Shown piece after piece: positions 3,343 to 42,800 of a stretch of DNA of 64,000 nucleotides. The notes beneath the pieces are model-generated. The model had not been told where the DNA came from. It made no database searches and saw nothing but the letters and a program-made list of their open reading frames with translations. This stretch comes from a virus: IMG/VR virus record IMGVR_UViG_3300025168_000001; one strand, written 5' to 3'. The stretch's first letter is position 1, and the number at the start of each line of letters is the position of its first letter. Position numbers and translations under genes: made by a program.

Positions 3343-3402
3343 ATAAGTTTTAACTATATAGTTATACAATTATTTGTATATTTATAACTTTAAATATTAG
3401 AT

Positions 3403-19063: not shown

Positions 19064-19195
19064 ATGGAAGATCTAATTTTTACAATAACTAGTCTTGTAA
19101 TATTTATGTTAGGAGTAGTAACAGGAATTTACTGGTCCTCTCAAATAGAAAAAGACATTAAAAACAGAACGAATAATGATAACAAAAATAACTAG
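19064..19195 (+). CDS. possible 43-aa membrane peptide
   Basis: ATG 19064: MEDLIFTITSLVIFMLGVVTGIYWSSQIEKDIKNRTNNDNKNN. One TM helix. Overlaps the next gene start by 20 nt. Below the track cut-off. Confidence 0.3.
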   Translation: MEDLIFTITSLVIFMLGVVTGIYWSSQIEKDIKNRTNNDNKNN

Positions 19196-23223: not shown

Positions 23224-26200
23224 TTAATCCCTATAGTGGTAAGTTAAAATATCTTTTACATATTTATGACGATTGATTGCTTTGGACCACGGCACTACAT
23301 CAAACAATGCTTTTTGTATTTTTGTTTCTCCTTTTCTAGACCCTGCTTTATACCTTTCCCATTCTCCTCCCCAAGTATCACTACCAAATTGTTCCATAAG
23401 AGTCCATATACGTTCTATAAAAGTTGTAGTAGTTGCTGGAGACTGTAACAATCTTGCAGCTTCCCATGGATTTATATAGGCCATTAGCTCTGTTTGAAGC
23501 CTAGCCATAAAGAATGCATACATATAATACATATCATCTTCATCGTCTCCTCGTTTTTTCATTCCTTGTGCAGCATACATTAAAGTTACAGCAAGCCCTA
23601 ATTCAAAAACTGTTTTTCTAATACCAGCCTTTTCATGTGCAGACATGTTTCCCCATTCTTCTTTTGACATAGATAAAATACCTTTCTTTACTTTATAAGT
23701 ATCATCATGTAATCTAGCAAACTTTTGTCCTAGCTTTTTAAACCCGTGGTATGCAGAAAAAGCAAAATATTTTAAAGCTGTTACATATTTACCTTCTTTA
23801 AGTGTATTTAAAATAGGATCATATATACGAGTTGCATTTTTTGAAAAGTCCTTAGAATCTTTAAAGAAAGATGCATTACCCCTAGTTCTAGCAAACTCTC
23901 CAAAATTAGTAAACAATTGAAATAAGGCGCTTCCTATACCCTGAAGTCTCTGCTTGATACCTACAGGATAAAACTTTCTCATTGTTTCTAGTCCCTGCCC
24001 TACAGCTTGTCTTCTCATAGGAGGAGCATTTCTTAATGAGTATGCCCCATGTTCCATTTCATTTATCTTTTGTATTATATGAGTTAATCTACTTATTGTT
24101 TGCATATTCTCTTCCTCTTGCTGTGTACGTAAACTCATATCAAGATTCATATTACCATGTAACGGAGCTTTATAATAACTTTCGCCAACTCTATATTCTA
24201 CCTGCGCAACTTTTTTATCTAAATTTACATCAAAAGCTCTGATACCATCTTTAATTTTTTTTCTAGAATAAGCTTTTGCAAGATCCATGGCCTCTTCTCG
24301 TTTTTTTGTAATACCTTTACCACTTTTATGTATATAATCCCCCTCCTTGTTTAGAACTTTTGTTTCGGCTAAAACCGTTAACATAACTTCATGGTGCATA
24401 TTATGCTCTGCCAGATTATTAAGCCCATGTAAAGTATTACTATTTAAAAGAGCTTTCATTTTATTATTATAGGCGTATACATGGTTATGCATACTAAAAT
24501 CATTCATAGGATCAAATAGTAGTCCTAATAAATTTGTTTTAGATCTTGGAAAAGCTCTTCCTATATCTGCAATTATGTTAGCTTCATCCATATGATAATA
24601 TACAGCTCCTTTAGCCATTGATTTAGGACTAAAGAATTCATTACCTATAGATTCAGAAAGATGTAAAGTTCCACCTAGTAATCTATTACTTATTGTTGAC
24701 ATCCAGTTTGCTGATAGTAAAACAGTACTTGTAGCACTTAACCATAAATTCCATAGCTGTCTAATAGAAATAGGGCCCACTGTTATTCCAGCTTCTTCTA
24801 CAGTTTCATTAAACATCCTTTGAGCAACTAAATCCATAGCATTATTATAAGTATTGTTAGCTTCTTGAGACTCTTCTTTTTGAAGAACTTTTCCTATGCT
24901 CTCACTTGCAGCACTAGACATTTGTTTAAATACTCTTTGCCAACCTTTAGTCTTAATTAATTTTCTACTATGTACCAAATTTAATAACATCTCTATATAT
25001 GGAAGTATCTTATTCTTCTCATTATAATTTATAGAAACATAGTTACCAACTAATATGTTTTGATGTATATGCATTTGCTGATCTGCAAGTTCTATAGTCT
25101 TTGTAAAAAATATAGGAATATGTGTTAATTTAGAATCTACAACGTCCCCTGTAGCCTTCAATTGTTGCCCACTTTCAATATCTTTACCTCTCTGGTACGT
25201 AAAAATTTCTTTTATGTAATTCTTTGTCCAGTTATTCCACATTTCTCCGATACTATTAGGGCCTGTCATTACATCATCAAATCTTTCCCACATTAATTTT
25301 CTAATAGCATCATACTTATATCTAGTTTTAAACTCTTCAGGACGTGCAGAATCTCTCATTTTCATTCCTTTCAGTACAAACTTTTTGTAATACTGATAGA
25401 TAGGATTATTAGGATCTGTTGCTTTTAATTTATTAAGCTCTTCATATTGTTGAGACTTATAACTTTCTACAGGATGTAAATTAAACTCTATGTTTACACT
25501 GTTTAGAAGTCTTTTTAAATTAGCCCTATCCGACTTTATTCTATTCATATTTGGAACATGGTATAGATCTTCAAAATTAAATAGTTCGTCTCTTAGAGTG
25601 TTCTCTAAAGACACTGCATCAGATATCATAGATGCTCTTGTTTCCATTAATTCATATACCTGCTGTTCTAATTTATTTATTGTATTTATTTGTTTAGGTG
25701 TAGCAGATTTAAGATCCTGAAGACTTTTTATTACAGCAGATTTCTTTAAAATAGCTTTTTCTAAATCTCTAACCCTTTCATATGCTACAGATATCCTATC
25801 TTTTTGACCTTTAATTCCTGCGTCCTGATCATAAGATTTATTGGAGTGATATAATTTCCTTAGAGCTGTATAAACTCTGTTTATTTTTCTATTATTTGCA
25901 CTTGCAGCTTTATCTATTTGGCCTAAAGCATTTACTGTTGCTTTCTTTTTTAAAGCATACATTGCTTTCTTTATAGTTTCGAGATCTTTATGCCAATTAC
26001 TATGCCATCTATGTGTTATCCAGCCGCTACCATTTTTACTAAGATTCCCTTTGTCATCATAGGATCTTTCACCAATAAGAGAAAAGAAATCCGATAAATT
26101 ATTCTCATTCTTACCTAAAGAATTCATATACTTCTTATACTCTTGGAAAAGTATATTACCTTCATGTGCAAATTTAGTCCATCTTAATCTTCCTGTGTCT

Positions 26201-27291
26201 TCAGCTTTAAGTATATAATAGTTTAAAGCTCTAAGTATAGGAGAGGTTGTATTACTGGCATTTAAAGCCCATCTTTCTAACCAGGAAATGTCTATACCTG
26301 CCGATAATAATCTTACTACATGCTGCTTAGCGTCTGCTTCTATAATAGAAGAACTTGCCTGCATTTTTAAAACCACATGATCTTGAACTCTTTGTTGATA
26401 ATCTGTGTTTGTTTCACCTTTCTTCCTTTTTCCTTCTTCTGTTTCTGCAAAAGATCTTCTATAAAATTCTTTAGCATTTGCTTCATATTCTCCTGTTACA
26501 ATATTGTCGGCTACTTGCTCTAAAGATCTATTTTTATATTCGTTTTCTATAAGATCTAAAGTTTCTTGTAAATTTTTAAGATTCCTTATCACAGCTTCAG
26601 GTAAAAAGTAAGATTTACCTAAATTTAGACTAGAGCTGTTTTCTAACTCTTGTGCGTCTTTAATTACTTTAGATACATCTTTATACGCCTGTATAATACT
26701 GTACATGTTTTTCATTTGCTGGCCACTTAATTTCTTACCAGTTTTTTCACTCTCTTCAATTTGTTCTACTATTGTTTCTACATCTCTAATAGCATTTTTT
26801 GTATAATTAACAAATCCTCTCATCTCATTTGCTTCACCAATTTGCCTTAACAAATCTCCTATTTGTACCCTTAATTTTTGTTGTTGATGAAAAGTTCCCT
26901 CCATCCTTCTTAAGTTTTCTAAACGAGTACTTAAAGTGTCTACAATTTTTTGTAATCTTGACAACCCTGGAGTTGCAACATTATTAAACTCATTGTAATT
27001 ATGTCCTTTTTTAGCTATTCTCCAATTAGCAAAATATTTAACAACATCTGTAGCCAAAGGTTCTCCATATTTATCTAATCTAGGTATTCCTTTATCAGTC
27101 TTTAAAGTATATAAATTAGGATTTTTATGAAAATTTCCAAATTGAGATTTAAATTTAGGACCGTCAATGACAGATCTATACGCTTCTTCCGCTTCAGATT
27201 CTGAATTGTAATGATCTACTAAGTCTTTATATAAAAGACTATCAACATCTTGTCCTGTTTTAGGATCCTTAACTATAAATGTACATGCCAT
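23224..27291 (-). CDS. giant virion-associated protein (1355 aa), function unknown
   Basis: Uninterrupted 4.07-kb ORF in AT-rich DNA. Largely helical/coiled-coil-like composition, with a hydrophobic segment (FELGLAVTLMYAAQGM) near the C-terminus. Last gene of the giant-ORF block. Confidence 0.85.
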   Translation of the reverse strand: MACTFIVKDPKTGQDVDSLLYKDLVDHYNSESEAEEAYRSVIDGPKFKSQFGNFHKNPNLYTLKTDKGIPRLDKYGEPLATDVVKYFANWRIAKKGHNYNEFNNVATPGLSRLQKIVDTLSTRLENLRRMEGTFHQQQKLRVQIGDLLRQIGEANEMRGFVNYTKNAIRDVETIVEQIEESEKTGKKLSGQQMKNMYSIIQAYKDVSKVIKDAQELENSSSLNLGKSYFLPEAVIRNLKNLQETLDLIENEYKNRSLEQVADNIVTGEYEANAKEFYRRSFAETEEGKRKKGETNTDYQQRVQDHVVLKMQASSSIIEADAKQHVVRLLSAGIDISWLERWALNASNTTSPILRALNYYILKAEDTGRLRWTKFAHEGNILFQEYKKYMNSLGKNENNLSDFFSLIGERSYDDKGNLSKNGSGWITHRWHSNWHKDLETIKKAMYALKKKATVNALGQIDKAASANNRKINRVYTALRKLYHSNKSYDQDAGIKGQKDRISVAYERVRDLEKAILKKSAVIKSLQDLKSATPKQINTINKLEQQVYELMETRASMISDAVSLENTLRDELFNFEDLYHVPNMNRIKSDRANLKRLLNSVNIEFNLHPVESYKSQQYEELNKLKATDPNNPIYQYYKKFVLKGMKMRDSARPEEFKTRYKYDAIRKLMWERFDDVMTGPNSIGEMWNNWTKNYIKEIFTYQRGKDIESGQQLKATGDVVDSKLTHIPIFFTKTIELADQQMHIHQNILVGNYVSINYNEKNKILPYIEMLLNLVHSRKLIKTKGWQRVFKQMSSAASESIGKVLQKEESQEANNTYNNAMDLVAQRMFNETVEEAGITVGPISIRQLWNLWLSATSTVLLSANWMSTISNRLLGGTLHLSESIGNEFFSPKSMAKGAVYYHMDEANIIADIGRAFPRSKTNLLGLLFDPMNDFSMHNHVYAYNNKMKALLNSNTLHGLNNLAEHNMHHEVMLTVLAETKVLNKEGDYIHKSGKGITKKREEAMDLAKAYSRKKIKDGIRAFDVNLDKKVAQVEYRVGESYYKAPLHGNMNLDMSLRTQQEEENMQTISRLTHIIQKINEMEHGAYSLRNAPPMRRQAVGQGLETMRKFYPVGIKQRLQGIGSALFQLFTNFGEFARTRGNASFFKDSKDFSKNATRIYDPILNTLKEGKYVTALKYFAFSAYHGFKKLGQKFARLHDDTYKVKKGILSMSKEEWGNMSAHEKAGIRKTVFELGLAVTLMYAAQGMKKRGDDEDDMYYMYAFFMARLQTELMAYINPWEAARLLQSPATTTTFIERIWTLMEQFGSDTWGGEWERYKAGSRKGETKIQKALFDVVPWSKAINRHKYVKDILTYHYRD

Positions 27292-27294
27292 AAT

Positions 27295-30200
27295 TTAACA
27301 TTTTTTCTTTGCTCTGGTTTTTACTTCTTTACTAAGTCGATTATAAAATTTGAGATTTTCATTAGAAGGTAAAGCAAAGTTTCCAATCTCTTTATAAATA
27401 TCTTCTATACTCTTATCCAAAGATACGCCATTTTTAATGAAATCCGTGAAAGTAATCTCTAATAATTCTTTAGCGTTAGTCCCTATCACTTTATCCATTA
27501 AACTTGTAAATAAATCTATGATAGATTTTATAAGATTAGATAACATTGTTCCTTCAAATAAAGGGCCTTCTTCTTGTATTTGTATATTCTCTAATTGTTT
27601 CATAACCTTTTTAAAAGTTAATCCATAAGCTAAGAACTCATCAAATACGTTATTCATTTCTTCTGCATATGCTCCGTAATTAAAGTACTTTTTCTCTCCT
27701 GAAAGAAGGTTTTCATTAATCTTTATATATTTTTCTACAGCAGTTTGCAATTGTTCAGGCATATCTTTAAGCTTAGTTTTTTCAATATATAAATCTAATA
27801 ACTTTTGTACCCTAACTTGGAACATTTTTTCTGTCGTTGTTTTACTATTCCAAGGTTTGTGTAAAGATTGCGCAGTCATATTATGAATAGTTTCATGTAA
27901 TAAAACCATTGCTTCTGTCTCTGTTTTTGAATATCCTTTTATTGTGTTTATTTTAAGAGGCATAAACACTCTATTTGCATTTAGATCATAAAATGCTACT
28001 GAACTCTCAGCTCTAGATTTCTTTATAACATCCGCACTTGTATAAACAATTTCAGTGTGTGTATCTCTAGTTAATTCCTGCATCATATTAATTATAGGAC
28101 TATAAGCCGACTTAACTGGTAATTGACGTTCAAACTGTTGTAAAAGTACTGTTAAAGGTCTAGAATCAAGGAAGTAATCCATCTGGTTTATTTTTTGCTG
28201 TTCAAAAAATATCTGTTGACCCTCACCTCTCGCTGCTAAACCTATGAATTTATTCCATGCTGCTGCATATCCAATATAATTACCTACTTCTTTATCATAA
28301 GAAACAGACTCTTCTGAAATTCCTGCTATATACTCCTGCAGCTCCAAGTTATACTTAAGAGCAGCTTTAATTGCTACTTCTGGTTCTATACCTTCATTTA
28401 TAGCCTCAGCTATAGTTTTAAATATTCCTACAATTCTAGGACCTTTACTTGTTTGAATTACAACAGGGAAAGATTCTTCTAATTTATAATTAGGAGTAAG
28501 TATAGTATGTAAATCTTGTTCTTCAGATATAGTACTAGTAAAATCTTCTTCGTTATTTAGAGTATTACTAAATTCTGATTGAGAATCATAGTCTAATTGT
28601 GCAGCATCTAGAGGAATGAATTTTCCACCTTTGTTAAGTTTTGCTGCTATTGATGCTAAAGCTACTAGTTTATTATTTTGCCTTAGAACACCTAACCAAT
28701 TATTTATAACTTTATCATTAAATACATTTACTATCTGGTTTTCTTTAAGCTCAGTTCTGTTTTCTGCATTTTCAAAGATTTTTCTACCTTTCTTATAAGT
28801 ACCTGTTCTTTCAGTTAATTGATAAATAGCATCTCCTTTTTCATTATAACCTATGTGCTCCATTAAAACAACTTGTTTACCTTTAACATTTACTTCTATG
28901 AATGGTACAAAATGTTTAAATCCTTCTTTTGGTTCTCTGGTTATAAATTTACGTGCACTGTTAGAAGGTAATACTATATTATAAACATAACTTATTTTAG
29001 ACCCTGGAATCTTAATGACTTTTGGAGACTTAGCAAAATATTCTGGAACTAATTCCGTATTACTAGTTTGAGTTTTAAGGAATTTTTTTAGTTCTGTCTC
29101 ATCAAATATTATATTACCATGAGTTTTAATGTCTAGTACTTGTTGACCAAATTGGTCATATACACCATTGTCTAGTTCATACTGTAAAGGCGCTAATTCG
29201 TGGAAAGAAAACAAAGTATTACTAAATCCTGATGATAATATAGAGAATTTATATAAGTCCTCAGCAAATTTTCTTACAGCAGCATCCTCACTAGAGAGCA
29301 AAGCATTCCACCCTTCAGTTAATGAGTCTTTATCTACACCTTCTTTTTTCTCACTCGCAGATGTTATTATATAATCATGTCCCCTTTTAGTATTAGAGAA
29401 CTCTGGTGATAAATATTGTACAAAAGGATTATCTTTTATAGGGCTATTATCTTCATTCTTATATCTCCATAATCTATTTACAACATTGTTTTTAGAGTAT
29501 AAAATATCAGTTACGTCTATACCTTTGTAAAAAGGCGTTTTAGAAAATAAGTATGAAATAAAGCCTGCATAAACTTTTCTATATAAGTCTTCATTTTGTA
29601 ATACTTTTTCATTACCTACTAACTCAGAAAGGTCTTTCATAATACCTTTAAAATTAGCGTTTCCAGCTAGGAATGTATTGCCAAATAAAGACAGCATCAT
29701 ATTAGGACCATTTTCTTGATACTTACCTAGCATAGTTCCATCAAACCTTTCAGAAAACCCTCCTATTACATCTGTTTCCAATACAGCTTCTATATTATTT
29801 TGGCCTATAATAGCCCCTACAACACCTCCTGCAGCACCTTGAGTATCTGCTTTAGAAGCTGTAACTGCTTTATTCAATTCACTAGCGGTACCTTTAAGAT
29901 TTAGGAACAGGTTTAATAATAATAACTCATCATAAGTTCTATTTGCCGTTGGAGTCTGTGAAGAGTCCAGTAGAGATTCTAATCTTTCTGTAGTTATAAT
30001 GTCACTAATTCTTATAGGACTTTTAGCATTAAGTGCTACAGCATCTTCTAAAGGTATATTATTACGTCTAGAATACATTCTTATACGGCTATCTTCTTTA
30101 AGTAAATTAACTATTTTAATATCTGCTATAGGAGTGCCTGTTAATGCGGAGTACTTAGTTAGTAAACGATTTCTTAAAACTTGTTCTGCTTTAAATACAC

Positions 30201-33200
30201 GCTTGCCATTAATATTTACCCCAGGGCTACCTGGAGAATTAATGAAATCCTGAGTTTTTACATAATCTGATAAAACTCTAAGACCCATAAATCTGTTAGT
30301 CCATCTAGGATCTACACCTGCTCTATCTAGTAAAGCAACGGTATTAGCAGTTGTTTTATTATTATTTAAATAAAATATATAAGGATCTTTAGCTATATCT
30401 ACATATGCATCTAGTCGTGCAGACATAGTGTTAGATATAAGGCCTCCTGCTGTATCAGTTATACTAGAAAGATCTGTAACCATAGTTTGTGGAGTTAGTC
30501 TACCTAGACCTATATCTTTACCTTTTAAAAATAAAGAAGATTCTACATTTTCTAGTGCCCACTGTGAAATAGCATGATCTACTAGATGCCTAGCTTCTTG
30601 ACCTACACCAAACTTACCTCCTAAGAATGTTTCTTTGGTTCTCATTTGGTACACAGGAGAGAAAAACTCTAAATCATTTCTAGAAGCTAGCACAGAACTT
30701 ACAGTAGAATAGAAATCTTCAGTTTCTCTGGCTGCTTCAATCTCTTCAATTTGAGATGGTAATAAAGTAGATTTAACTTTTAAATATCTAACTAGAGCAG
30801 CATCTTCTTTAGTGGCCATACTATCTAAAGGATTTATTAGCTGATCAAATGTATTATTACTCGTTAGTATAGATTGGTATAACTCTAGTTTTCTATTTCG
30901 TAAAGATTTTTTAAATAGCTCTACTCTGTTTCCTCTAGTTTGTCTGTTTTCTTCAATTGTTTTTGTGCCGTCATAATTTACGTAATACAAACCTTTTTTA
31001 GACTCTGCATAAGAAGGTAGCATTATATACAATTTATCTATATCAAAATCAGCCCCAGTCTTAGCCGTAAACTCATCGTAAACTATAACAGTATCTCCGA
31101 CAGATTTTGGAAGGAATCCTACTATATCAAAAGAGTCTATAGAACTCATAGCCTGATTAGGTATACGATAACCTACTGCAGTTAATAATCGTTTATCTTT
31201 TATATATTTTGCTATTTCTTTATTAGACATTTGCTCATGTCCTGGAACGTGCTTTTCTTTAAACCAGCTAGGTAAAAATATTTGAGCTCTTACTGTACCA
31301 TCTTTACTGTTATATACAGCACCTAATCCTCTTTCATTTATTTGTTTGTTTAACTCTATTTTAACTTTTTGAGGCAGATCAGAAAATTTCTTCATTCTCT
31401 GCATACCAAAATTACTTTGCTGTATAAAAGACCCACCTGGCATCTTAAGCTTAACAAGTCTATCTGTTATCATTGCCCCTAACATACTTTCAATATCTCT
31501 CATAAAAGGATGCGAGCTAATATCAATAGCAAATCCAGTTCCAGACTCATTTAATGCTAGAGATTCTAGTAGTTTTTTAGGAGTATTTTTCTTAGCTTTA
31601 AAAGCATTGTATAATATACTATGTAGTTTTGTATAGTCTTCTATATGATATTTAACTTGACCAGTTAGCATATCAACAGTTTCTGTACTAACTCCCCATT
31701 CATTTACCATTGCATCTTTTTCAAGATCGCTTAATGATCTGTCTATAGCATGTAACTCTTTAACTAGTTCATACCCTGAAATCTCTTTATATTGTTGTTC
31801 ACCATTAGCAATCCTAGTAGGAACTTTATACATAGCTTCTAAGTCAATATTACCTATTATATTTTTCTTAACCTGAGATCCTTCTAAAGATTCTGACTCC
31901 AAATGTGGCTTTAAGTCTTGCTGTAATTTCCAAAATTCATTCTTTAATATAAATGGATTTAAAACTATATTATTAGAAAGTTCCCCAGTCTCCTGGTTTT
32001 GCATTATATTAGAAGGACTCAAAGCCCCTACTTTTATACCTGATTCAAATACAACTTCATCTACATGTTGCGTATTCATAGCTTCAAGCAATTTAGAAAG
32101 CTCTGTTCCTTTTACAACACTAGGTATAAGAACAGCTTGAGAGTATTTTAAATATGTTGGTATATGTAAAGTTGTTTTCCCATTATCAGCTGTTTTTCCT
32201 TTTCTAGTTTCAAAATGCATACCTTTTAATGGCTGCGCCAGTATCATGTCAAAATTAGTGTCATCAACAATTTCTCCATTTAATACTCTAAAGTAAGTAG
32301 CATCATATTTTTTATCCCATTTCCCTAACATCCTCATAAGAGACCTCCATCTAGGAAGAGTTATATAAGCTTGTGCATCAGTAACATTTATATTTAAATA
32401 TGGTTTTAATATTTTTTTAGCTTCGTCTCTACTTAACCCTTTCTTTTCAATTAAGAATTTAAGATAATTATCATAGTACTTCGCTTTAGGAAGAATCTGA
32501 TCTTCTATAATAGCCGCTGTGTAAGTTTCATGGCCTTTTATTATTTTAAGGTCTTGACCAGGCGCTATTAATTCAGGAAAACGTTTAGATAAATCATCTA
32601 AATTTTTATAAAAAGCAGGATCTTGAGAGTATAACTTTGTTGTCTCTATATTAGATATTAAGTTATTAATTGAATAGTTAGCTATAGCTAATCCTATACC
32701 ATAATGTTCTTTAAATTTACCTCCTTTTTGACCATACTTCTCTTTATGTGCTTTTAATATTTTAGTAGATATACTATTATTTTTATAAATTATAGTATCT
32801 TCTGTAGGTTTTGTTCTAATTATTACACCATTTTCTAAAGCAAATGAAATTTCATCTTGTATTCGATTCATTAAAATAGGCTTTACAAATTTTGTAAGCT
32901 TATCTAATACTAAATCTGAATTCCAGTTATCTAAAAATAAACCATCTTCTGACATTATCCCTGCTTCTTTAAGAAATTTACTAGTTAAAGATGGGAATAA
33001 TATAAATTTAAGTCCATTTGCAGAGTCTCTATTACGTGTATTATCTTCATTATTACCATTATAGTGATAATAATTTGTAAGCTCCGTGTCATTTAATTTA
33101 TTTTTACCAAATAATTCTTCGGTAACTGCTTGTACTCTAGAAATCTCAGACGCTGCGTATAATGCTATTTTTCTAGATATATTGTCACCTAATCTTATAG

Positions 33201-36200
33201 TGCCGTCTGGTTTTAATTCAAATCCTGTATCAGAATTTTCAAATACGTCATATACAGACATTCCTTCTATAAGATTCCAAATAGATTTATCAGCCATAGT
33301 AGGAGGCGATAAAAGACCTTTTTGCCTAGCTATACCATCTAGTGTAGAATTTATTCTAAATGCATGCTCTTGTGATGGAGTTAATTCAGTATTTGAAGTA
33401 CCCTCATCTTTAGAGTTAGATAATTTTAAGTTATTAAAAGTTCTTACTTTAATGGCGTTACCTGCTAATATAGATTTTAACCATGAGGAACTTTTAGACC
33501 ATCTATCATTTAATAACTGTTCTCCTTCATATGTAGAAGCATTAAGTTTATTAGAAAACTTAGATAAATAGTTATTTAAAGAATACAACCAGTAAGATTT
33601 ACCTTTAGGCCCTAATATGTTACTTTGCCCCATACTGTTATTAACTAAAGCCTCAGCTTCAGCTAACATATTAATAGCAGAGTTGGCCCAAGAGAATGGA
33701 TTGTTTTCACTGAAGTTTAAATCCATAGGAGCATTTACATTTTCAGATCTCACTTTTATACTGCTAAAGTCATAAGGATTTCTACCTGTTTTTTTACTTT
33801 TAGTTGTACGCACGTAAACATCTTGTAATCCGAAATTACGTTCTTTACCTAAAAATAAAGTCTTTAATGACTCTGCTTCAGTAGCTTCTGCTTTTAATAA
33901 TACATCTAGTCCCATTGTAGATAATGAAATACCAGAAACTTTTAAATTAGAGATTAGTTCAGATTTATATTCTTCTGATACTTTCAAATCCATATCTCTA
34001 TTCATACGTTTAAGTTCAGACATATATCCCTTCTTCATGATATCCCAAGATTTCAATATAGTTTCTAATACGGGCGTATTAACATCTAAATTTTCTTCCT
34101 CTTCTTTTAATATAAAGAACTTCTTATTTTTTAATCCTTCTAACCACTCTTTTCTAATAGCAAATTTTCTACCCTGAACTGCAGGATCAATAAATCTAGT
34201 ATTTGATTGTTCTATATTCATTAACTCTCCGCCTTCTTCCTGTAATTGATAAGACCACTTATCTGTGATTCCTGTTACAAAATTCATAGAAGCTTTAGAA
34301 AACGCATTGAAAAATCTAATTTGATCATTCTCCTCTAAGTTTTTTATTTTAGAAGATAGCCCCGTAAAAGTAGGGACTAATTCAGATAATCTTTCTAAGG
34401 ATTTCATCATTAAATCATAAGCGTTGTATACCACTAGCTCATTTTGTGAATTATACTCTGCATAGCTAGTAATATCTGCTAAAGATTTTTCTATTGTATT
34501 CCATACTGTTGAAAACCTTTCTATCTCTGTCAAACCTGTACGAGCATCAACTATTTCCTCCCCCCTCTTGTTACGTTTGGCTAAAAACGACAGCAATATT
34601 TTAGTATTTGTACTAGCATTGTCTTTACCACTGTATTCAAAATGTGAGGACATAGCCTGTGACACATCTTTATTTCCTTTAGTATCTTCGTCAGTCTCTA
34701 ACTTGATTTTATATTGAGAAAGTATATCAGGAACTAATCCTTTATTAGTTTCAGCATCAAAGAAATACTTTATATTATCTTTTATTATTTCTAAGTTATT
34801 TGCAACACTCTGATTACCTGCTTCTTTTCTTATCTTTTGTATATAATTTAAATAACCTTTAAGTATATTATCAGTTATTTTAATATCTGTTAAATTCTTA
34901 ATATTTTTAAGGCCCTTGTTAGTTACTAAAGCGTATATTAAAGATGTAGCAATTGCATTTCTATCACTTATAGAAAAACCTGCCTCTTCTAAAGCAGTCT
35001 CTTCTATTGACTGTGAAAGATTGTTTATAGATAATGAAAGTATTTTATTAGAGTTTTTTCTATAATGTCCTCTTGAAATCCTACTATATATTTTAGCGGC
35101 TGTAGTAGTAGAAAACATAGGTACTAAATAATCAATAAGTTCATTAAACCATCTTTTTAATTTAGCTCCTAAATTTTTAAATGTAATCCTATCATCTTGA
35201 ATAGCGGTTTCATACATTCTGTATTCTTCTGCACGTATTTCACTAAGAGCTATGCTTTCAGCAGTGTTTTTAGTTAACTCCCAAGTAGGATATTTCTTTT
35301 GTATTTCTGATATAGTAGCATCTGTAGGTTTTCCATGCTTTAATCTAGTCTCAGCATTTAATGCTGCAATTTCACTACTAGTTAAGTAAGAAGTTTCTAC
35401 AGCATGATAAGCTTCATGATATTCAGCTCCTTTCGGTGCCATTTTAGATAACTCTATAACACCTTTAGTAAATGCAGCATACACTTCCATGCCATTGCTT
35501 CCAAGTTTTACTAATTTGTCTTTAACTCTAACAGGAACTGCGGTCCCCAGTACTTTATCTAAATATGCTCTTGCTTCTTTTGGATTTAAAAGCTCAGTTG
35601 GAGAAGGCTCTAAAATTATCTCCATAGGTTGATCAAACATATCAGGATTAAATTCCTCATCATTAACAGGAGTAGTATCTACGCCTTTAAGGTCTTCAGG
35701 TAATTCGTTTATTTTATCTTCATTTTTAAGAACTGAAGGTTTACCTGTAAACTCGTAAATGTCTATAACTAATCTTCTATCTTTTTGTATTCTACCATTA
35801 GATAATACTTCTAAATCAGTAGTTAAAACTCTGTCAGCTTCTACAAAATCTGAGTTATAATTATCATTAACACCTTTCTTATATACTTTTCCTAAGAAAG
35901 TGAATTCAGTAACTCCTGTTGATGCTATAAAAGGAATATCAAATATACTACTATTGATACCTGCAGCATGTGCATGTCTCTTTTTGAATTTACTTACATG
36001 ATTCATAAAAGCTGTCCGTGCTTTAGATCTTTCTTGATCTAGCATATTTTTATTTATAGTAAGATTACCAAATTGGAAATGAGCAGATCTCGTTGACGTA
36101 GAAGGATTAAATCCAAAAGTAGTTGCGGAAGCTGCATTTAAATCAAATTGGTCATCTGCTAAATCTGTATTATCATTTACAAACGTTAATAAATTCATAT

Positions 36201-39200
36201 ATTGAGACACAGTTAGTCCTGTATCTTTATATAAAGATGTAAATGTAAAAGGGTCCTGTGTTGTAGAGTTTAAAAATTTCTCTACAATTTCAAATAGCTC
36301 ATTTGTTTCTTCTTTCGTTAAGTTTCTATTATTTAACTTAACAGGAATAGTAGTATTATCTACAGGATCTGTAAATATAGCATATAATCTACCTCTACCT
36401 ACACCATCTTCAGTTACAGTAAAATATGGATTTATACCATCAGTTATACCTTTACCATCATTGATTGCTAGGTGGGGCTTGTTATTACCAAATAACTTTG
36501 ATATTTTACCTTGTTGTCCTGGTATATTATTAAATTTTCCAAAATCTACATATGATACAGATCCATATAAAGGTCCGTTATTTAAAATTCTAGCATTTAA
36601 TATATTTTTAAAAGTAGTAACAATATTATCAGACTCTTCTATCTCACTGGTAGACACTATGTTATAAAGATATGTCTCAACAGATTGATTCGTTTTAGGG
36701 TCTATAAGTTTAATTTTGACTTTAACATTTCTACCAAATTGACTTTTAGCATTAGCTGTTCTTAAATCTACATTCTCATCTATAGGTTCTTTTCTGGATA
36801 TTAATTCATTTATATTTGAAGGGGCGCCCTCAGTATTTATATCAATAATTTGTACAATAAGATTTTTCAAGTCTTCTCTACTCCTACTGTTTACAAATTT
36901 ATTTACAGCGTCATCTTCTTTACCCGCTTGAATATTTGGATGATGCTTATATGAAAAATCTTCATTCTGCGCAGAAAATGAAACAGGAGTAGAAAGATCT
37001 TGATCACTTCTCTGTTTTAAAACTAATTTATCTTCTTTAAGTTGTTTTTTAGTATCATCTTGTGTATTTGAAGCATCTACAACAGGTTGTGTGTCTTGAC
37101 TGTCTTTATTTTTTTCAACTTTAGTAGAAGTTCTTTGTTTATTAGAATTAGAAACAATATCTTTAACTTTATCTTTATCTAGAATTCTTCGCTCCATGCT
37201 TGCAAAGTCCTCTGCATCTAAAGGGTGAAACCCATCTTTATTTTCAATCCCATTAATTCCAAATTTTCTAACATATTTACCTTTTAAATTTCCTGATCTA
37301 GCCCATACTATATCTCCTTCATTTATATTTTGATCTTTAGCCTTAGTACTATTTAAGTAATCATTAATTTCTTTAGTTTTTCTTTTATTATATGCATCAG
37401 TAGCTTTTTTCCACGCCTTCATATCCATGTAAAAAGGATTCTTCTTAATCTTAAATGCTTTATTAGCATCTTGCATATCCATCAATTGTGGTGCAATAAT
37501 AGCAGCTCCCATAAGTCCCCCATTTTTACGAACTAGAGCATCAGTATAAGTTTTATTTTCTGATATTTCAGGAATAGTTTTAACACCTAACTCTTTCATT
37601 TTAGCTTTTAATTCTGCCTCAGCTTCTTTTAATAGTTTATTATTAGCTTTTATAAAAGAAGAGTTTACAAATTTAGTGTATGCTGCGGAACCATATTTTT
37701 CTTTACCTGGTTTAACTTTTTTATGAGACGCTCCAATAGCTTTTAATGACATTACATTCATAGCTAATTGCCATAAATTAAATTGCTCATCACTCGGAAA
37801 AGATTTTCTAGCTTTTTTTGCTATTCTACTAGCTTCTTTCTCGGCTATTGCTGCTTCTGATATATTAGTTTCAGATACATGTCTCATATGAGAAAACGCC
37901 TTTAATGCATCTACTTTATCTTCTTTAGTAAGATTTTTATATTTATCCCCTTGTAAAAGATCATAGTAAGACTTTAAATCTGCTACTTCTTTATTTACCT
38001 TACCGTATTCAACCATGTCTGATTTGTCAGTAAGTCCTTCCTGTTGTGTATATTCTTCGTGAGATCTTAAAGCTCGTGTTAGTCTTTTACCACCGTCCTT
38101 TTCAAACACATTATATAATATGTCTGCTCTATCTGACCTCTGCTGACTATCATAATATTTATCTAAATTATCATTTATTAAATTATACTCTTCTTGGTAT
38201 TTAGCTTTTACTGTTTTATTCTCTGCAAAGTCTAAAGCATTTTGTGCAAGACTTATACCACCTCCCATAAATAATCCTAAAAGCCCTCCTGCTCTAACAG
38301 CATTTCTAAATTCTTTAGAGTCAGTTCTATTGTTATCTCTATGCTCTGTAAACCCAAATAATCCTCTTACAGGATTGCCTACTAATGTGTTATATACTCC
38401 TGGTACAGATCCTACTGTTGCATCAAAAGATGGTGGAAGATTTTCAAAAAATCCTGGATCGTATTCGTCATACTTTCCTTGTTTATAATCATCTGCAAGT
38501 GTGTATTGATAACCTTCCTCAAATCCCTCCCAAAATCCATTAGCCCCCATAATAGGAACAGCTCTTCCCATTGTTCTAAGTCTATTAGCATTTCTAGGAT
38601 TCCAAGCCCATTTAGGCAGCTTATTCATACCTGTAGATAGTTTAGATCCTGCTGCCGCCACTCCTGGTATTTTAGATCCTGCCGCTACAAAAGGACTCAT
38701 AACTTTTCCCCACGGAACAAACATCATAGATACTTGTGCGAAATCACCTGCTAACAGATTCATATTCTGTTGATGCATAGATTTCATACCTTTTATAGCT
38801 TCTCCTTGTATAGATTCTTTTTGTTTAGCAGTAGGTGGTTGGCCTGTAGTAAGTAAATGCCTAGCTTCAAGATCTTTTACACGTTGCTCATAAGCACCGT
38901 AAGCTTCAGCATCCGATTCATGCTGTCTCATTTTATAAGCAAATCCTCCACCCGCTAGCATACCTCCTAAAGTTACTACAGGTGGAATTACTTTACCCCA
39001 GGCGCCAGGAAGTCTTTTTGCATACTTAGCCAGTTTATTACTACCATAACCTGTAGCAAGTGCCATACTTAACATTTTAAAATCAGACATAGCTCCTCCT
39101 ATATCTTCTCCCATTTCTCCTGACATCCAATAGTCAGTGAAATCAGAACTTTCCTCGTCCATTAATCTTCTACCCTCAGCAGAAAACATTGCGTCTACAG

Positions 39201-39828
39201 GTCTTTCTGCTATACCTTTTTCAGTTTCTTGAAGTTCAAGTTTATTCTTTTTAATTTCACTTTGTAACTCAGCAGCTTGTTTCTCTATTTCAGATAATCT
39301 TTTAGCATCTTGCTGATCTTTTTCAAAGCCCTTTATTAAATTCTCCTGCTTCTGTAATTCACTTTTTTCTTTTAATATATCCTTTAACTCTAGTTCGTCA
39401 GTAAGAATATTATATTTTATAGCATCACCATGAATCCTATCTGCAGAATTCCATATTTGATTCCAAGTATTTCTTGGGTCAGATTGCTGTTCAAAAAGAT
39501 TTGCATATCCTGGAGTTCCCTTAGGGGCTATGTATGTAGGAGTGTTATCTGCTATATAAGGAGACGTTAATATGGCATCAAGATTTTCATCGTTTTGCCT
39601 ATTTCGTAATATTTTTATAGTCTCATCGTCAGCAGTGTCGTAAATATTTTTTATATCTTTAAGACCTTTATTATCTATTTTATAAAGATTATCCATTCTA
39701 TCATCATAATCATTTTGAATTATAGGATTATCTTGTAAAAATTCACGATTAGTTTCGCTCTGGTTAACTTCCATGTTTTCCATAGCCTCATCGTATTTAT
39801 CGATAGGTCTGTACTGTTTTTTAGACAT
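27295..39828 (-). CDS. giant polyvalent protein (4177 aa) with beta-prime-like DPBB RNA polymerase loop and two HExxH motifs
   Basis: 12.5-kb ORF. YRIPNQAMSSIDSFDIVGFLPKSVGDTVIVYDEFTAKTGADFDIDKLYIMLP (DFDID at 31036-31050, residues 2927-2931) parallels the RNAP beta-prime block NRAPTLHRLGIQAF...[28 protein letters not shown]. HEAYH at 35404-35418 (res 1471-1475); HETIH at 27883-27897 (res 3978-3982). Gly-rich hydrophobic N-terminal segments. Confidence 0.85.
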   Translation of the reverse strand: MSKKQYRPIDKYDEAMENMEVNQSETNREFLQDNPIIQNDYDDRMDNLYKIDNKGLKDIKNIYDTADDETIKILRNRQNDENLDAILTSPYIADNTPTYIAPKGTPGYANLFEQQSDPRNTWNQIWNSADRIHGDAIKYNILTDELELKDILKEKSELQKQENLIKGFEKDQQDAKRLSEIEKQAAELQSEIKKNKLELQETEKGIAERPVDAMFSAEGRRLMDEESSDFTDYWMSGEMGEDIGGAMSDFKMLSMALATGYGSNKLAKYAKRLPGAWGKVIPPVVTLGGMLAGGGFAYKMRQHESDAEAYGAYEQRVKDLEARHLLTTGQPPTAKQKESIQGEAIKGMKSMHQQNMNLLAGDFAQVSMMFVPWGKVMSPFVAAGSKIPGVAAAGSKLSTGMNKLPKWAWNPRNANRLRTMGRAVPIMGANGFWEGFEEGYQYTLADDYKQGKYDEYDPGFFENLPPSFDATVGSVPGVYNTLVGNPVRGLFGFTEHRDNNRTDSKEFRNAVRAGGLLGLFMGGGISLAQNALDFAENKTVKAKYQEEYNLINDNLDKYYDSQQRSDRADILYNVFEKDGGKRLTRALRSHEEYTQQEGLTDKSDMVEYGKVNKEVADLKSYYDLLQGDKYKNLTKEDKVDALKAFSHMRHVSETNISEAAIAEKEASRIAKKARKSFPSDEQFNLWQLAMNVMSLKAIGASHKKVKPGKEKYGSAAYTKFVNSSFIKANNKLLKEAEAELKAKMKELGVKTIPEISENKTYTDALVRKNGGLMGAAIIAPQLMDMQDANKAFKIKKNPFYMDMKAWKKATDAYNKRKTKEINDYLNSTKAKDQNINEGDIVWARSGNLKGKYVRKFGINGIENKDGFHPLDAEDFASMERRILDKDKVKDIVSNSNKQRTSTKVEKNKDSQDTQPVVDASNTQDDTKKQLKEDKLVLKQRSDQDLSTPVSFSAQNEDFSYKHHPNIQAGKEDDAVNKFVNSRSREDLKNLIVQIIDINTEGAPSNINELISRKEPIDENVDLRTANAKSQFGRNVKVKIKLIDPKTNQSVETYLYNIVSTSEIEESDNIVTTFKNILNARILNNGPLYGSVSYVDFGKFNNIPGQQGKISKLFGNNKPHLAINDGKGITDGINPYFTVTEDGVGRGRLYAIFTDPVDNTTIPVKLNNRNLTKEETNELFEIVEKFLNSTTQDPFTFTSLYKDTGLTVSQYMNLLTFVNDNTDLADDQFDLNAASATTFGFNPSTSTRSAHFQFGNLTINKNMLDQERSKARTAFMNHVSKFKKRHAHAAGINSSIFDIPFIASTGVTEFTFLGKVYKKGVNDNYNSDFVEADRVLTTDLEVLSNGRIQKDRRLVIDIYEFTGKPSVLKNEDKINELPEDLKGVDTTPVNDEEFNPDMFDQPMEIILEPSPTELLNPKEARAYLDKVLGTAVPVRVKDKLVKLGSNGMEVYAAFTKGVIELSKMAPKGAEYHEAYHAVETSYLTSSEIAALNAETRLKHGKPTDATISEIQKKYPTWELTKNTAESIALSEIRAEEYRMYETAIQDDRITFKNLGAKLKRWFNELIDYLVPMFSTTTAAKIYSRISRGHYRKNSNKILSLSINNLSQSIEETALEEAGFSISDRNAIATSLIYALVTNKGLKNIKNLTDIKITDNILKGYLNYIQKIRKEAGNQSVANNLEIIKDNIKYFFDAETNKGLVPDILSQYKIKLETDEDTKGNKDVSQAMSSHFEYSGKDNASTNTKILLSFLAKRNKRGEEIVDARTGLTEIERFSTVWNTIEKSLADITSYAEYNSQNELVVYNAYDLMMKSLERLSELVPTFTGLSSKIKNLEENDQIRFFNAFSKASMNFVTGITDKWSYQLQEEGGELMNIEQSNTRFIDPAVQGRKFAIRKEWLEGLKNKKFFILKEEEENLDVNTPVLETILKSWDIMKKGYMSELKRMNRDMDLKVSEEYKSELISNLKVSGISLSTMGLDVLLKAEATEAESLKTLFLGKERNFGLQDVYVRTTKSKKTGRNPYDFSSIKVRSENVNAPMDLNFSENNPFSWANSAINMLAEAEALVNNSMGQSNILGPKGKSYWLYSLNNYLSKFSNKLNASTYEGEQLLNDRWSKSSSWLKSILAGNAIKVRTFNNLKLSNSKDEGTSNTELTPSQEHAFRINSTLDGIARQKGLLSPPTMADKSIWNLIEGMSVYDVFENSDTGFELKPDGTIRLGDNISRKIALYAASEISRVQAVTEELFGKNKLNDTELTNYYHYNGNNEDNTRNRDSANGLKFILFPSLTSKFLKEAGIMSEDGLFLDNWNSDLVLDKLTKFVKPILMNRIQDEISFALENGVIIRTKPTEDTIIYKNNSISTKILKAHKEKYGQKGGKFKEHYGIGLAIANYSINNLISNIETTKLYSQDPAFYKNLDDLSKRFPELIAPGQDLKIIKGHETYTAAIIEDQILPKAKYYDNYLKFLIEKKGLSRDEAKKILKPYLNINVTDAQAYITLPRWRSLMRMLGKWDKKYDATYFRVLNGEIVDDTNFDMILAQPLKGMHFETRKGKTADNGKTTLHIPTYLKYSQAVLIPSVVKGTELSKLLEAMNTQHVDEVVFESGIKVGALSPSNIMQNQETGELSNNIVLNPFILKNEFWKLQQDLKPHLESESLEGSQVKKNIIGNIDLEAMYKVPTRIANGEQQYKEISGYELVKELHAIDRSLSDLEKDAMVNEWGVSTETVDMLTGQVKYHIEDYTKLHSILYNAFKAKKNTPKKLLESLALNESGTGFAIDISSHPFMRDIESMLGAMITDRLVKLKMPGGSFIQQSNFGMQRMKKFSDLPQKVKIELNKQINERGLGAVYNSKDGTVRAQIFLPSWFKEKHVPGHEQMSNKEIAKYIKDKRLLTAVGYRIPNQAMSSIDSFDIVGFLPKSVGDTVIVYDEFTAKTGADFDIDKLYIMLPSYAESKKGLYYVNYDGTKTIEENRQTRGNRVELFKKSLRNRKLELYQSILTSNNTFDQLINPLDSMATKEDAALVRYLKVKSTLLPSQIEEIEAARETEDFYSTVSSVLASRNDLEFFSPVYQMRTKETFLGGKFGVGQEARHLVDHAISQWALENVESSLFLKGKDIGLGRLTPQTMVTDLSSITDTAGGLISNTMSARLDAYVDIAKDPYIFYLNNNKTTANTVALLDRAGVDPRWTNRFMGLRVLSDYVKTQDFINSPGSPGVNINGKRVFKAEQVLRNRLLTKYSALTGTPIADIKIVNLLKEDSRIRMYSRRNNIPLEDAVALNAKSPIRISDIITTERLESLLDSSQTPTANRTYDELLLLNLFLNLKGTASELNKAVTASKADTQGAAGGVVGAIIGQNNIEAVLETDVIGGFSERFDGTMLGKYQENGPNMMLSLFGNTFLAGNANFKGIMKDLSELVGNEKVLQNEDLYRKVYAGFISYLFSKTPFYKGIDVTDILYSKNNVVNRLWRYKNEDNSPIKDNPFVQYLSPEFSNTKRGHDYIITSASEKKEGVDKDSLTEGWNALLSSEDAAVRKFAEDLYKFSILSSGFSNTLFSFHELAPLQYELDNGVYDQFGQQVLDIKTHGNIIFDETELKKFLKTQTSNTELVPEYFAKSPKVIKIPGSKISYVYNIVLPSNSARKFITREPKEGFKHFVPFIEVNVKGKQVVLMEHIGYNEKGDAIYQLTERTGTYKKGRKIFENAENRTELKENQIVNVFNDKVINNWLGVLRQNNKLVALASIAAKLNKGGKFIPLDAAQLDYDSQSEFSNTLNNEEDFTSTISEEQDLHTILTPNYKLEESFPVVIQTSKGPRIVGIFKTIAEAINEGIEPEVAIKAALKYNLELQEYIAGISEESVSYDKEVGNYIGYAAAWNKFIGLAARGEGQQIFFEQQKINQMDYFLDSRPLTVLLQQFERQLPVKSAYSPIINMMQELTRDTHTEIVYTSADVIKKSRAESSVAFYDLNANRVFMPLKINTIKGYSKTETEAMVLLHETIHNMTAQSLHKPWNSKTTTEKMFQVRVQKLLDLYIEKTKLKDMPEQLQTAVEKYIKINENLLSGEKKYFNYGAYAEEMNNVFDEFLAYGLTFKKVMKQLENIQIQEEGPLFEGTMLSNLIKSIIDLFTSLMDKVIGTNAKELLEITFTDFIKNGVSLDKSIEDIYKEIGNFALPSNENLKFYNRLSKEVKTRAKKKC

Positions 39829-39830
39829 AT

Positions 39831-42800
39831 TTATTCGCCTTTAGATTGTGTACTATTTTTTAAAATAACATGATAATGATCCCCGTGTAGTTGTATAGAT
39901 CTTATCGCTCCTCTAACTGTAGGATCTTGACTATCAAATGCTTGTTTAATTTGTCTACCTGAGCTTAAATCAAGATCAAGCGCATTACCGTCTAGATGAG
40001 GACTATCCTGATGCCCTTTTACTATTTTATTATAAGCGGGTAGTCTAAACATACTAGTCACTGTTATATTCATGTTGTTTGCAGAAGCAAAAGTATTTAA
40101 AGAATTTAAAGATCCTTGTGCCCCTGGGTTAAGGTATGCACCATTTACTCCATTATTACCGTCTTTTAACGTTATATTTGAATACTCTGTATCATTAATA
40201 GGAGTGTAGCCCTCAATAGTTGCTTGTCTATCAGTAGCAGTTCTTAATAAATCAAAATCTGTTACCCGACCATTTTCAATACCTATATTATTATTACTAT
40301 TTGAAGCATCTAAACTATTATCTAACCTAGTAAAATCACTTACTATAACTCTAGAAGATTCTCTTAATTCAGAGTCTGTATAATCCTTAACTAAAGCATT
40401 ATGCATTTGTGGATTAATCAATGAATTCATTCTTATAACTCTCCCAGCTTTTTGATTAAGATCAGCTCTTAATTTAATTAAATCTTTACCGCCATACTCT
40501 TTATTCATAAAGGCCGTAAGAGCACCTGCATTACCATTTGTCTCGTTTAATCTTGTTAACCATTCTATCTCATCAGAAATATAATTTGATAATTCTCCAT
40601 GTAAAGCAGGATCAATATCTTTAAGCCTATCTAACTGAGACACAATACCTGTATTCTCATTGGCAATAACATTGTCAAACAATAACTGTCGACTGTTTAC
40701 CATATCAGGAGTATTGAAAGCACCGCTTACTTCTGCTCCAGGTATATTGTTTCCTACATATCCTTCTATCATATATCTATTAGAAGTATTTCTACCCTTC
40801 CTTCCTCTTTCAAGCTCATTAGTTGAGGATATTATATTTAAACTCTTATTTAAATTTTGATCCCATTGATCACCATATTGAGCCGATTTATCTGTTCCCA
40901 TTTTCATAATACCATCATCATATCTCGCACGAGCTTGTCCTCCTACTGGGTTACGTAAAACCATAGATATACCATATACAGGTACCTGAGTTGCTTTACC
41001 ATTAGGATCTGTAGATTTAACACTGTGAGTTGTTTTTTGAATTATATTCTTTTCTGTCAATTGTTCGATCCAAAGATTACTTCCGTCAAAATCCCAGAAT
41101 CTATCATCCTCTTCTATAGTTTCAAAAGTTCTATCTTCTTCAGGTATAGTATTTATAATATTATCTAACTCTTGTTCTGTAAAATAAGCAGTTCCATATG
41201 TGAGCATTTGGTTTGTTCCTTCTTCTCCATTAAGACCTGGGACATATTCTAAGAAAGTATTATTACCACTTAATGGGACAAACTCATAATCTGCTCCTTT
41301 AAATCCAGGGGCTTCAAGAACTTTTGTAAAGTTTTCGTATGCTATTCTGTCCTCATCACTTAAGTCGTTTAAATATTTTTCATTTGCTTTATAGATATTA
41401 CGAGCTTCAGTACCAAATGGATCATATATACCACTATTTTGTAATTGTATTAATTGCTTACTTTGTTGAGCACTTAGCCCTTCTCCTGTCAAATAAGGTC
41501 CCATAAGTTCAGTACTTGATGAGATATTCTGATTCAACTTACTTAACATTTTTTGTTTTAAATCTTCAGTTAATAGTATAGGTTTAGCATTTTGCACAGC
41601 AGACTTATCTAATCCTCCTTTACTGTTTTTCAATTTAGCCAACTCTTCTGCAGGTAAAAGTTCCATTAAGTTTTGATCAAGGTATAAGGCAGGCTCTATA
41701 TATTCTCCTGGCTGTATAGCTACAACTCTGTTTTTTACACTTGTAAGATCAGATATACTTTGTATTTCTTCACCCATATTATCAAAACTTACATTTGCAC
41801 CTTCGTAAAACTCTTTAAGAAGTTGATATTGATGTGATTGAATCTGTCTGTCTATTGCAGAACCTTCCTCATCAGTATTTACCCATTCTCCTTTATTATC
41901 AGATGTCCACATAGAAGCGTCTGGAGAAACAAAATAAGGAAGATTTCCTTGGAAGCTAGGAGAAACATATAATCTATTATCATCAGGAGCTACTCCCGTA
42001 CCATTAACAGCTGTTGAATTAGGTACAAGTGTACCTTCATTACCTGTTAAGGTTATTAATTCTGATGAACTTAAATCAGTTCCATCAGGAGTACTAGCCC
42101 TATTAATAACTTTGTTATAATAACTACTTGGTGTAGTTACATCTGTATTATTGCCGTTGTTATTCTTTCCATTATTCTTTCCATTATTAAACTCTACACC
42201 AAATCTTTCCATACCTGTGTTATACAACATATCATAAGATTTCTCTTGCATCCTCTTCATAGCGGCTGGATCTCCATTAGCTGCTTTTATAAAATCATCT
42301 TTAATATTCTTTTCACCATAATGATAAATTAAACTAGAATATTGCTCTTGCCAAGATTCAGAACCAAACGCTGCTTTATTTGCAATTCCTTGTTGTGTTC
42401 TTTGATGATCAGGCATATTGTTAAAGAAAGATTCTTCGAAAGCTTTAGCTTTACTTCTGTCCCCTCCTTCAGCATAGTCAAACTCTCTATTAGTTCCTTG
42501 AACTGTAAGATTTCCGTCTGCATCGAATTGATCAAGAGTAGGACCCACATTACCTATATTAGGATCATTTGCAGGATTATACTGGTTATTTTTCTTGAGC
42601 TCCATTATATTTTGTTGCTCAGCTACCCATCTATCATAATTGAATTGTACATCTTGAATGTCTTTAGAAGGTATAGCACCTTGTATATCTCTTTTTATAA
42701 GGCCTTCAGCGTTACTTAAATCAGGCATTTGAGAATATTTAGTATAAATATCTTGTATATTACTTTTCCAACCATTTACAGTTCCTTCATCGTCAGGCTT

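Follow-up and report, generated by a model that had tools for sequence, protein, structure and literature searches.

The window analysed here, a 64,000-nucleotide (nt) stretch of the IMG/VR virus record IMGVR_UViG_3300025168_000001, carries on its minus strand a 12.5-kb open reading frame (ORF; 27295..39828) that encodes 4177 amino acids (aa) without an internal stop. We conclude that the ADFDID loop of this protein very probably forms the active site of a DNA-dependent RNA polymerase (RNAP) with two barrels in one chain, orthologous to gp66 of the crAss-like Cellulophaga phage phi14:2, and that the 4177-aa protein is a new, distant member of a known, structurally characterised polymerase family. 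The polymerase proper occupies residues 1721-3700 (nt 28729..34668; this and all other features of the gene lie on the minus strand), the counterpart of gp66 residues ~220-2100. The window itself is the genome of an uncultured, distant crAss-like (Crassvirales-type) phage.

A gp66-type catalytic core

A first-pass annotation, made from the DNA letters, had noticed an ADFDID catalytic-type block in the 4177-aa ORF and read it as a candidate virion RNAP. Translation confirmed the block and placed ADFDID at residues 2926-2931, with DFDID at residues 2927-2931 (nt 31036-31050). The surrounding block of the catalytic double-psi beta-barrel (DPBB-A), GYRIPNQ...GADFDIDKLYIMLP, spans residues 2886-2938 (nt 31015..31173); counted from the tyrosine, YRIPNQ...ADFDIDKLYIMLP covers residues 2887-2938 (nt 31015-31170), with the translation YRIPNQAMSSIDSFDIVGFLPKSVGDTVIVYDEFTAKTGADFDIDKLYIMLP. 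The interval first assigned to it, 31015-31175, was right within 1-2 bases, but is out of frame when taken literally. Similarly, the loop FESGIKVGALS, annotated at 32014-32046, was found ~330 residues upstream of ADFDID as described, but its true coordinates are three bases off, at nt 32017..32049 (residues 2594-2604, in the first double-psi barrel, DPBB-B).

When the 4177-aa protein was compared with all Protein Data Bank (PDB) sequences using phmmer, it matched chain 6VR4, the structure of phi14:2 gp66, at E 1.1e-107. This match consisted of three collinear stretches (query residues 1727-2941, 3051-3189 and 3302-3629) covering residues 236-2059 of the PDB chain, which includes a 14-residue tag. 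BLASTP against gp66 likewise gave collinear segments, at 9e-100, 4e-20 and 3e-6. The catalytic loops pair residue for residue (GYRIPNQAMSSIDSFDIVGFLPKSVGDTVIVYDEFTAKTGADFDIDKLYIMLP in the window and GYRIPNQGQSSNDPLQIVGILPEAMGDTIVAYTEIPTKTGSDFDIDKMYVMLP in gp66), with DFDID 2927-2931 aligned exactly to gp66 1361-DFDID-1365, and FESGIKVGA is aligned to gp66 VLDGVKVGA, which pairs K2599 with gp66 K1065. Previous work on gp66 showed that the enzyme requires Mg2+ and every aspartate of 1361-DFDID-1365, that it is resistant to rifampicin, and that it is packaged in the virion and transcribes early genes (bioRxiv 10.1101/2020.03.07.982082).

An exhaustive HMMER search with query residues 2440-3200 recovered 3948 proteins at E < 1e-3, including an identical 4177-aa protein; a preliminary word-indexed search with the polymerase core had returned 4 proteins only. 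We scored residue conservation on the best ~150 of the 3948 homologues. A lack of conservation of the aspartates had been named at the outset as a reason to give up the polymerase reading; they are kept in 151 (D2927), 152 (D2929) and 151 (D2931) of 152 homologues. R2888, P2890, Q2892 and K2932 are invariant, about 150 homologues share the R-I-P-x-Q, G-D, K-T-G and K positions around the aspartates, and K2599 and G2601 are each kept in 151 of 153. At the fourth position of DFDxD, 146 of the 152 homologues have isoleucine and 4 have valine. All crAss-like RNAPs carry Ile or Val at this position, whereas other RNAPs studied earlier carry Gly (bioRxiv 10.1101/2020.03.07.982082), and the isoleucine of the window's DFDID therefore fits the crAss-like signature.

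The alignment extends to the elements around the two barrels. Residues 2631-2801 (nt 31426..31938) form the Connector between both barrels and align to gp66 1095-1238 (alignment A2), the limits reported for the gp66 Connector (bioRxiv 10.1101/2020.03.07.982082); the K2599 loop lies ~30 residues ahead of it. The bridge helix equivalent, SPVYQMRTKETFLGGKFGVGQEARHLVDHAI (residues 3057-3087, nt 30568..30660, versus gp66 1529-1559), falls inside the second phmmer stretch, and the trigger loop equivalent, …SARLDAYVDIAKDPYIF… (residues 3130-3168, nt 30325..30441, versus gp66 1598-1636), has a D, K, D, P and Y that are invariant or almost so (alignment A2). Both elements are clearly conserved, and the gp66-type two-barrel catalytic apparatus is complete and strongly constrained.

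We also modelled residues 2540-3200 with AlphaFold2 (predicted local distance difference test score, pLDDT, 68; predicted template modelling score, pTM, 0.66) and compared the model with known structures using Foldseek. The top match was again 6VR4 (E 2.3e-23, TM 0.54), and the profile and structural similarity to two-barrel polymerases that the first-pass annotation had proposed to look for was found by both routes. Among the 50 matches listed, ranks 2-50 were RNAP large-subunit chains, nearly all of them bacterial beta' together with one phage AR9 subunit (E 1e-3 to 3e-2), and QDE-1 was not among these 50. The candidate virion RNAP reading is thus supported by the 6VR4 match, the conserved aspartates and the model, with packaging in the virion suggested by analogy to gp66.

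Neurospora QDE-1 and the cellular beta/beta' subunits likewise carry a DxDxD loop in a double-psi beta-barrel, but they show no significant sequence similarity to the window protein, in which Ile replaces Gly and both barrels lie in one chain. The initially proposed alignment to beta', through the R.P, G, DFDxD and P positions, was reproduced by hhalign, where a profile of 150 family members matched E. coli beta' 424-473 over 50 columns at E 0.024 (cross-controls 0.63-0.65). When the block was aligned locally and directly to residues 403-477 of E. coli beta', z was 5.2, with 3 of 2000 shuffles attaining the score. The hhalign, shuffle and Foldseek results are each weak alone and mutually consistent, in line with a beta'-type barrel carrying DxDxD.

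Several points weigh against our identification. Direct likeness to cellular beta' is marginal by itself, and we judge the motif to be a real polymerase centre because of the gp66 match. The AlphaFold2 model is of moderate quality and poor at the lysine loop (pLDDT < 50). For this loop, comparison with E. coli rpoB aligned only NIVLNP/DIVLNP (8 columns, E 0.2, z 2.4), which is not significant; the proposal that FESGIKVGALS is a beta-type lysine loop is therefore kept as tentative, with K2599 invariant and located in the barrel before the Connector but with no significant match to the beta motif HGNKG. The cleft-blocking domain of gp66 (residues 196-233) has no clearly recognisable counterpart, as the alignment to gp66 starts at ~220-236 and the preceding window segment is little similar. 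No Pfam or PHROGs model recognised the protein in scans of its whole length, despite its ~3900 homologues. Moreover, packaging, ejection and template preference would be carried over from an orthologue that is 28-35% identical, and the two HExxH domains outside the core (see below) are putative zincin metalloproteases, as suggested by motif conservation and sub-threshold matches.

Given these points, we weighed other readings of the same module. The core could belong to a two-barrel polymerase of other activity, namely a QDE-1-like RNA-dependent RNA polymerase, a primase-like enzyme or a PolD-like DNA polymerase. Indeed, in structure gp66 comes closest to QDE-1, and its preferred templates in vitro are single-stranded (bioRxiv 10.1101/2020.03.07.982082), and sequence cannot reveal template specificity. 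However, the phage has its own Pol A and primase, and the Foldseek matches listed were RNA polymerases only, which makes such an activity very unlikely. We consider it highly unlikely, too, that the module is a degenerate, catalytically dead relic within a structural or ejection (cargo) protein, even though non-polymerase sequence dominates the protein, the gene sits in a structural/cargo block and gp66 itself crystallised in an inactive conformation (bioRxiv 10.1101/2020.03.07.982082). All family-invariant residues, including the three aspartates, R2888, P2890, Q2892, K2932 and K2599, are intact. In addition, the core is the best-conserved part of the protein in the comparison with its closest relative, the IMG/VR locus L008 (74% identical), with 70-75% identity versus 42-46% in the extensions; every module is kept between the two at 42-75% identity, except a 40-residue C-terminal tail (38%). 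Such IMG/VR relatives were found by an alignment-based scan, while a single-sequence scan returned none.

Fusion architecture and genome context

The first-pass annotation had correctly described the module as embedded in a protein twice the size of gp66 (4177 versus 2180 aa). The doubling reflects fusion of the polymerase to parts resembling gp67 and gp65, and public genomes already contain this architecture, though poorly annotated. Along the ORF (27295..39828), a gp67-like part is followed by a zincin-like domain, the putative virion RNAP and a gp65-type zincin-like domain. Compared with gp66, which is orthologous over ~1900 residues and shares the DFDID, the two barrels, the Connector, the bridge helix and the trigger loop, but is only 28-35% identical and has no HExxH, residues 1-220 are replaced in the window by a 1720-residue extension, and the C-terminus is longer by ~480 residues that include a gp65-type HExxH domain.

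The N-terminal extension (residues 1-1400, nt 35629..39828) is homologous to phi14:2 gp67 and crAss001 gp47. Residues 700-1400 reach gp67 626-1247 at E 1e-11 using jackhmmer, and residues 1-1400 as a whole show collinear weak and transitive BLAST matches to gp67. The latter also matches the N-terminal extensions of 22 giant homologues collinearly, and the N-terminus of crAss001 gp47 matches gp67, while its C-terminus matches window residues 1390-1615. A hydropathy scan of the gp67-like part revealed two Gly-rich hydrophobic segments, VIPPVVTLGGMLAGGGFAY and AVRAGGLLGLFMGGGISLA (residues 280-298 and 510-528, nt 38935-38991 and 38245-38301), with which an ejection protein might insert into a membrane.

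Zincin-like domain 1 (residues 1410-1600, nt 35029..35601) carries HEAYH at residues 1471-1475 (nt 35404-35418). Its H, E and H are invariant, a Glu ~58 residues downstream is nearly invariant (alignment A1), and its AlphaFold2 model (pLDDT 86) shows a beta-sheet followed by the HExxH helix, a topology compatible with a zincin fold; all its matches to metalloproteases were sub-threshold (YME1/FtsH 0.066, Zmp1 0.6, Peptidase_M41 0.068, MATCAP E 0.03). Zincin-like domain 2 (residues 3941-4137, nt 27418..28008), with HETIH at residues 3978-3982 (nt 27883-27897), matched the profile of phi14:2 gp65 211-363 with an hhalign probability of 96.4% (E 1.3e-9) and is common to P0011, P0012, P0015, P0016 and gp33 of Flavobacterium phage Fpv1 (HExxH at 4179 of 4401). 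We also considered domain 1 as the gp65 zincin, but the hhalign probability was just 59%, and the two were treated as different HExxH domains. Domain 1 changes its host protein: it is internal in the window, lies at the C-terminus of crAss001 gp47 (residues 2077-2323) and stands at the N-terminus of some 2200-aa polymerases (P0100, P0121). In phi14:2, gp66 has a region equivalent to this domain without the HExxH. The gp65 fusion is partial, with the HExxH domain joined to the polymerase C-terminus and the large gp65 C-terminal domain encoded by the separate next gene; the C-terminal 528 residues of the fusion gave no tblastn match in deposited phages, and jackhmmer missed relatives that BLAST recovers.

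It was reported before that gp65, gp66 and gp67 are fused in some phages (bioRxiv 10.1101/2020.03.07.982082) and that protein boundaries vary in the transcription block (PMC7886860). Within our set of 153 cluster representatives, a gp67-like extension is present in 43, a fused gp65 in 4 and both in 5. The parts are separate genes in phi14:2 and crAss001, and an assembly chimera or a lost stop that merged gp67-like and gp66-like genes could in principle have produced the 4177-aa ORF. However, the identical protein (P0005) occurs on a public Logan contig (SRR6207170) that may not be independent of the window DNA; 43 cluster representatives carry the core past residue 1900; and the same layout occurs in RefSeq (Fpv1 gp33, 4401 aa; cr118_1 gp14, 4946 aa; cr56_1 gp39, 4461 aa) and in the IMG/VR loci L008-L010. 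Fused proteins also lack the junction cysteines of the split genes (see below), as expected of a genuine evolutionary fusion, and we regard an artefact as extremely unlikely. A giant virion RNAP of the N4 type (T7-like, single-subunit, right-hand) is a practically negligible alternative: thousands of residues and a virion-cargo context recall N4 vRNAP, but the whole-protein PDB search (E up to 10) gave 6VR4 and chance bromodomain matches without any N4 or T7 polymerase, none is among the listed Foldseek matches, and the active site is a DFDxD in a double-psi barrel, not in a palm domain.

The polymerase fusions of Fpv1 and of the crAssphages cr118_1 and cr56_1 have their DFDxD beyond residue 3200 and are followed by a gp65-like protein of 1568-1667 aa, and Fpv1 gp33 shares the C-terminal HExxH. 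They are just 25-29% identical to the window core and were not recognised as polymerases, their record names being 'virion structural protein', 'exonuclease V' and 'nuclear pore complex protein-like'. Names of this kind are given to the polymerase genes of many deposited crAss-like genomes (NC_055890, NC_055872, NC_055892 and others), which are called 'nuclear pore complex protein-like protein', 'exonuclease V', 'DNA helicase' or 'DprA-like'. A Pfam scan of the giant homologues P0007 and P0027, which contain extra inserts, gave no matches. In Bacteroides phage crAss001, gp50 matches the polymerase, gp47 the gp67-like part plus zincin-like domain 1, and gp49 corresponds to gp65 and to the 1355-aa protein of the window; these are three genes, with gp47 on the opposite strand, whereas the window joins the gp47- and gp50-type parts in one polypeptide. 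All three crAss001 proteins were detected in virions, and their ejection in a partly unfolded state was proposed (PMC10172136). Another virion two-barrel RNAP fused to a large non-polymerase virion protein is gp96 of Thermus phage P23-45 (PMC10770324), but its partner is the tail tape measure protein, the phage is a siphovirus, and no sequence relationship to the window protein was detected.

The gene lies in a transcription block laid out as in phi14:2, with a gp65 orthologue downstream and the gp67-like part fused upstream, and in the same position opposite the replication module. The downstream gene (23224..27291, minus strand) encodes the 1355-aa gp65 orthologue, an RNAP-associated protein (BLASTP E 4e-42 against gp65). 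The N-terminal 218 residues of this protein resemble gp66 1-206 (BLASTP E 3e-6) and not the gp65 N-terminus; N-terminal domains seem to have been exchanged between cargo proteins. Directly upstream of the polymerase gene, a 1043-aa cysteine-free protein (39831-42962, minus strand) has a C-terminal Peptidase_M15_3 / endolysin-like domain (residues 939-1016) and is probably an ejected cell-wall hydrolase. The minus-strand block also encodes a muzzle protein of 2187 aa (Pfam crAss_MUZ, 1e-52), ring proteins 1 and 2, and a 1888-aa protein.

On the plus strand, a divergent replication module (~1-23 kb) encodes Pol A, SNF2 and DnaB helicases, a Toprim primase, a PD-(D/E)XK nuclease, a MoxR ATPase and a class II ribonucleotide reductase. 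Within this module, at 19176-20036 and 16139-17293 (plus strand), lie a gene resembling spore photoproduct lyase (Pfam SPL, 2e-29) and a bpMoxR/AAA_5 ATPase. Inside the polymerase gene, a GTG-initiated antisense ORF of 161 aa (33086-33571, plus strand) most likely arose by chance, as the DNA is AT-rich (GC content of the window, 33%).

tblastn matches were found in 123 phage records, which are crAss-like or from Bacteroidota hosts. The best deposited phage match was phi14:2, with 34.5% identity in the core, and similarity to crAss-like phages at the DNA level was limited to ~150 bp around the active site (~70% identity). In many gut-derived relatives from IMG/VR (L034-L080, mostly sample 3300045988), the polymerase ORF is split into 260-900 aa pieces under the standard bacterial code, which is consistent with the stop-codon reassignment described for some crAss-like phages (PMC7886860).

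Terminal cysteines in the gp67/gp66/gp65 block

The 4177-aa protein contains a single cysteine, Cys4177, which is its last residue (nt 27298..27300), and the sole cysteine of the 1355-aa gp65 orthologue is Cys3 (nt 27283-27285, minus strand), such that the junction between both genes reads K K C stop, three bases, M A C. At the density seen in the window's remaining ORFs (15.3 Cys per 1000 residues), the two proteins would be expected to have 85 cysteines, and 2 were observed (Poisson P about 6e-34). Across the proteins of the gp67/gp66/gp65 block, internal cysteines occur at ~0.2 per 1000 aa. In phi14:2, gp67 ends in its sole cysteine, and cysteines are found at positions 3 and 2179 of gp66 and at position 3 of gp65. 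The pattern recurs in crAss001, with C2339 of 2341 in gp47, C5 and C2404 in gp50 and C5 in gp49, even though gp47 is encoded on the other strand. The fusions of Fpv1, cr118_1 and cr56_1 likewise carry a Cys among their last four residues, and the next protein has one at residue 3-6.

We then compared protein types drawn from the 153 representatives. Stand-alone polymerases (n = 80) have an N-terminal cysteine in 76 cases and a C-terminal one in 76, while gp67 fusions (n = 43) retain the C-terminal cysteine in 42 cases and have an N-terminal one in 2. An N-terminal cysteine was found in 2 of the 4 gp65 fusions and a C-terminal one in none; the 5 triple fusions have neither. In an independent set of IMG/VR loci, 61 junctions could be scored, of which 44 had both cysteines, 16 had neither and 1 had one only (the loci examined for the pattern were the window, L001, L002, L003-L005 and L008-L087).

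As the terminal cysteines are paired at gene breaks and gone when the genes are fused, they point to a head-to-tail link. It is possible, at somewhat less than even confidence, that the gp67-like, polymerase and gp65-like cargo proteins are joined head-to-tail in the virion via these cysteines, most simply by disulfides. In the simplest form of this hypothesis, the link would be covalent (a disulfide) or metal-mediated, and the split proteins would then behave like a polyprotein. The crAss001 virion is known to contain disulfides at other sites (PMC10172136). The terminal-cysteine pattern did not turn up in the gp66 preprint or the crAss001 atlas, nor in a full-text literature search of incomplete coverage. 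Other explanations of the terminal cysteines were tried and rejected: a lipoprotein signal, as there is no hydrophobic leader; a split intein, as intein domains are absent and the Cys is the very last residue; and a nucleotide-level start/stop coupling signal, as crAss001 gp47 lies on the opposite strand and is not adjacent.

Proposed mechanism and significance

Based on orthology and gene context, the following sequence of events can be proposed. The polymerase would be translated as one 4177-residue chain, with the remainder of gp65 made from the next gene, and the fusion would be packed into the capsid as cargo. There, if the cysteine hypothesis holds, Cys4177 would pair with Cys3 of the gp65 orthologue, forming one continuous cargo thread whose parts would be freed by reduction in the host cytoplasm. 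The protein might afterwards pass down the tail into the host cell in a partly unfolded state, preceding or accompanying the DNA, and refold thereafter. The chain may either stay intact or be cut into modules by its own zincin-like domains. With the ADFDID loop binding Mg2+ as its active site, the polymerase would transcribe the early genes of the replication module, which lie on the other strand (~1-23 kb), independently of, and before, the host polymerase.

Our analysis provides a confident functional annotation for the largest gene carried by this distant, uncultured member of the crAss-like phages, a gene that was missed entirely by Pfam and PHROGs and whose relatives bear misleading names in RefSeq. 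The polymerase finding leaves the knowledge of crAss-like transcription unchanged, and the comparative by-products may be more useful than the finding itself. These are a module map of the gp67/gp66/gp65 block, in which two different HExxH domains move among three proteins, and the terminal-cysteine pairing rule, which offers a testable idea of how very large cargo might be held together, in order, for packaging and ejection.

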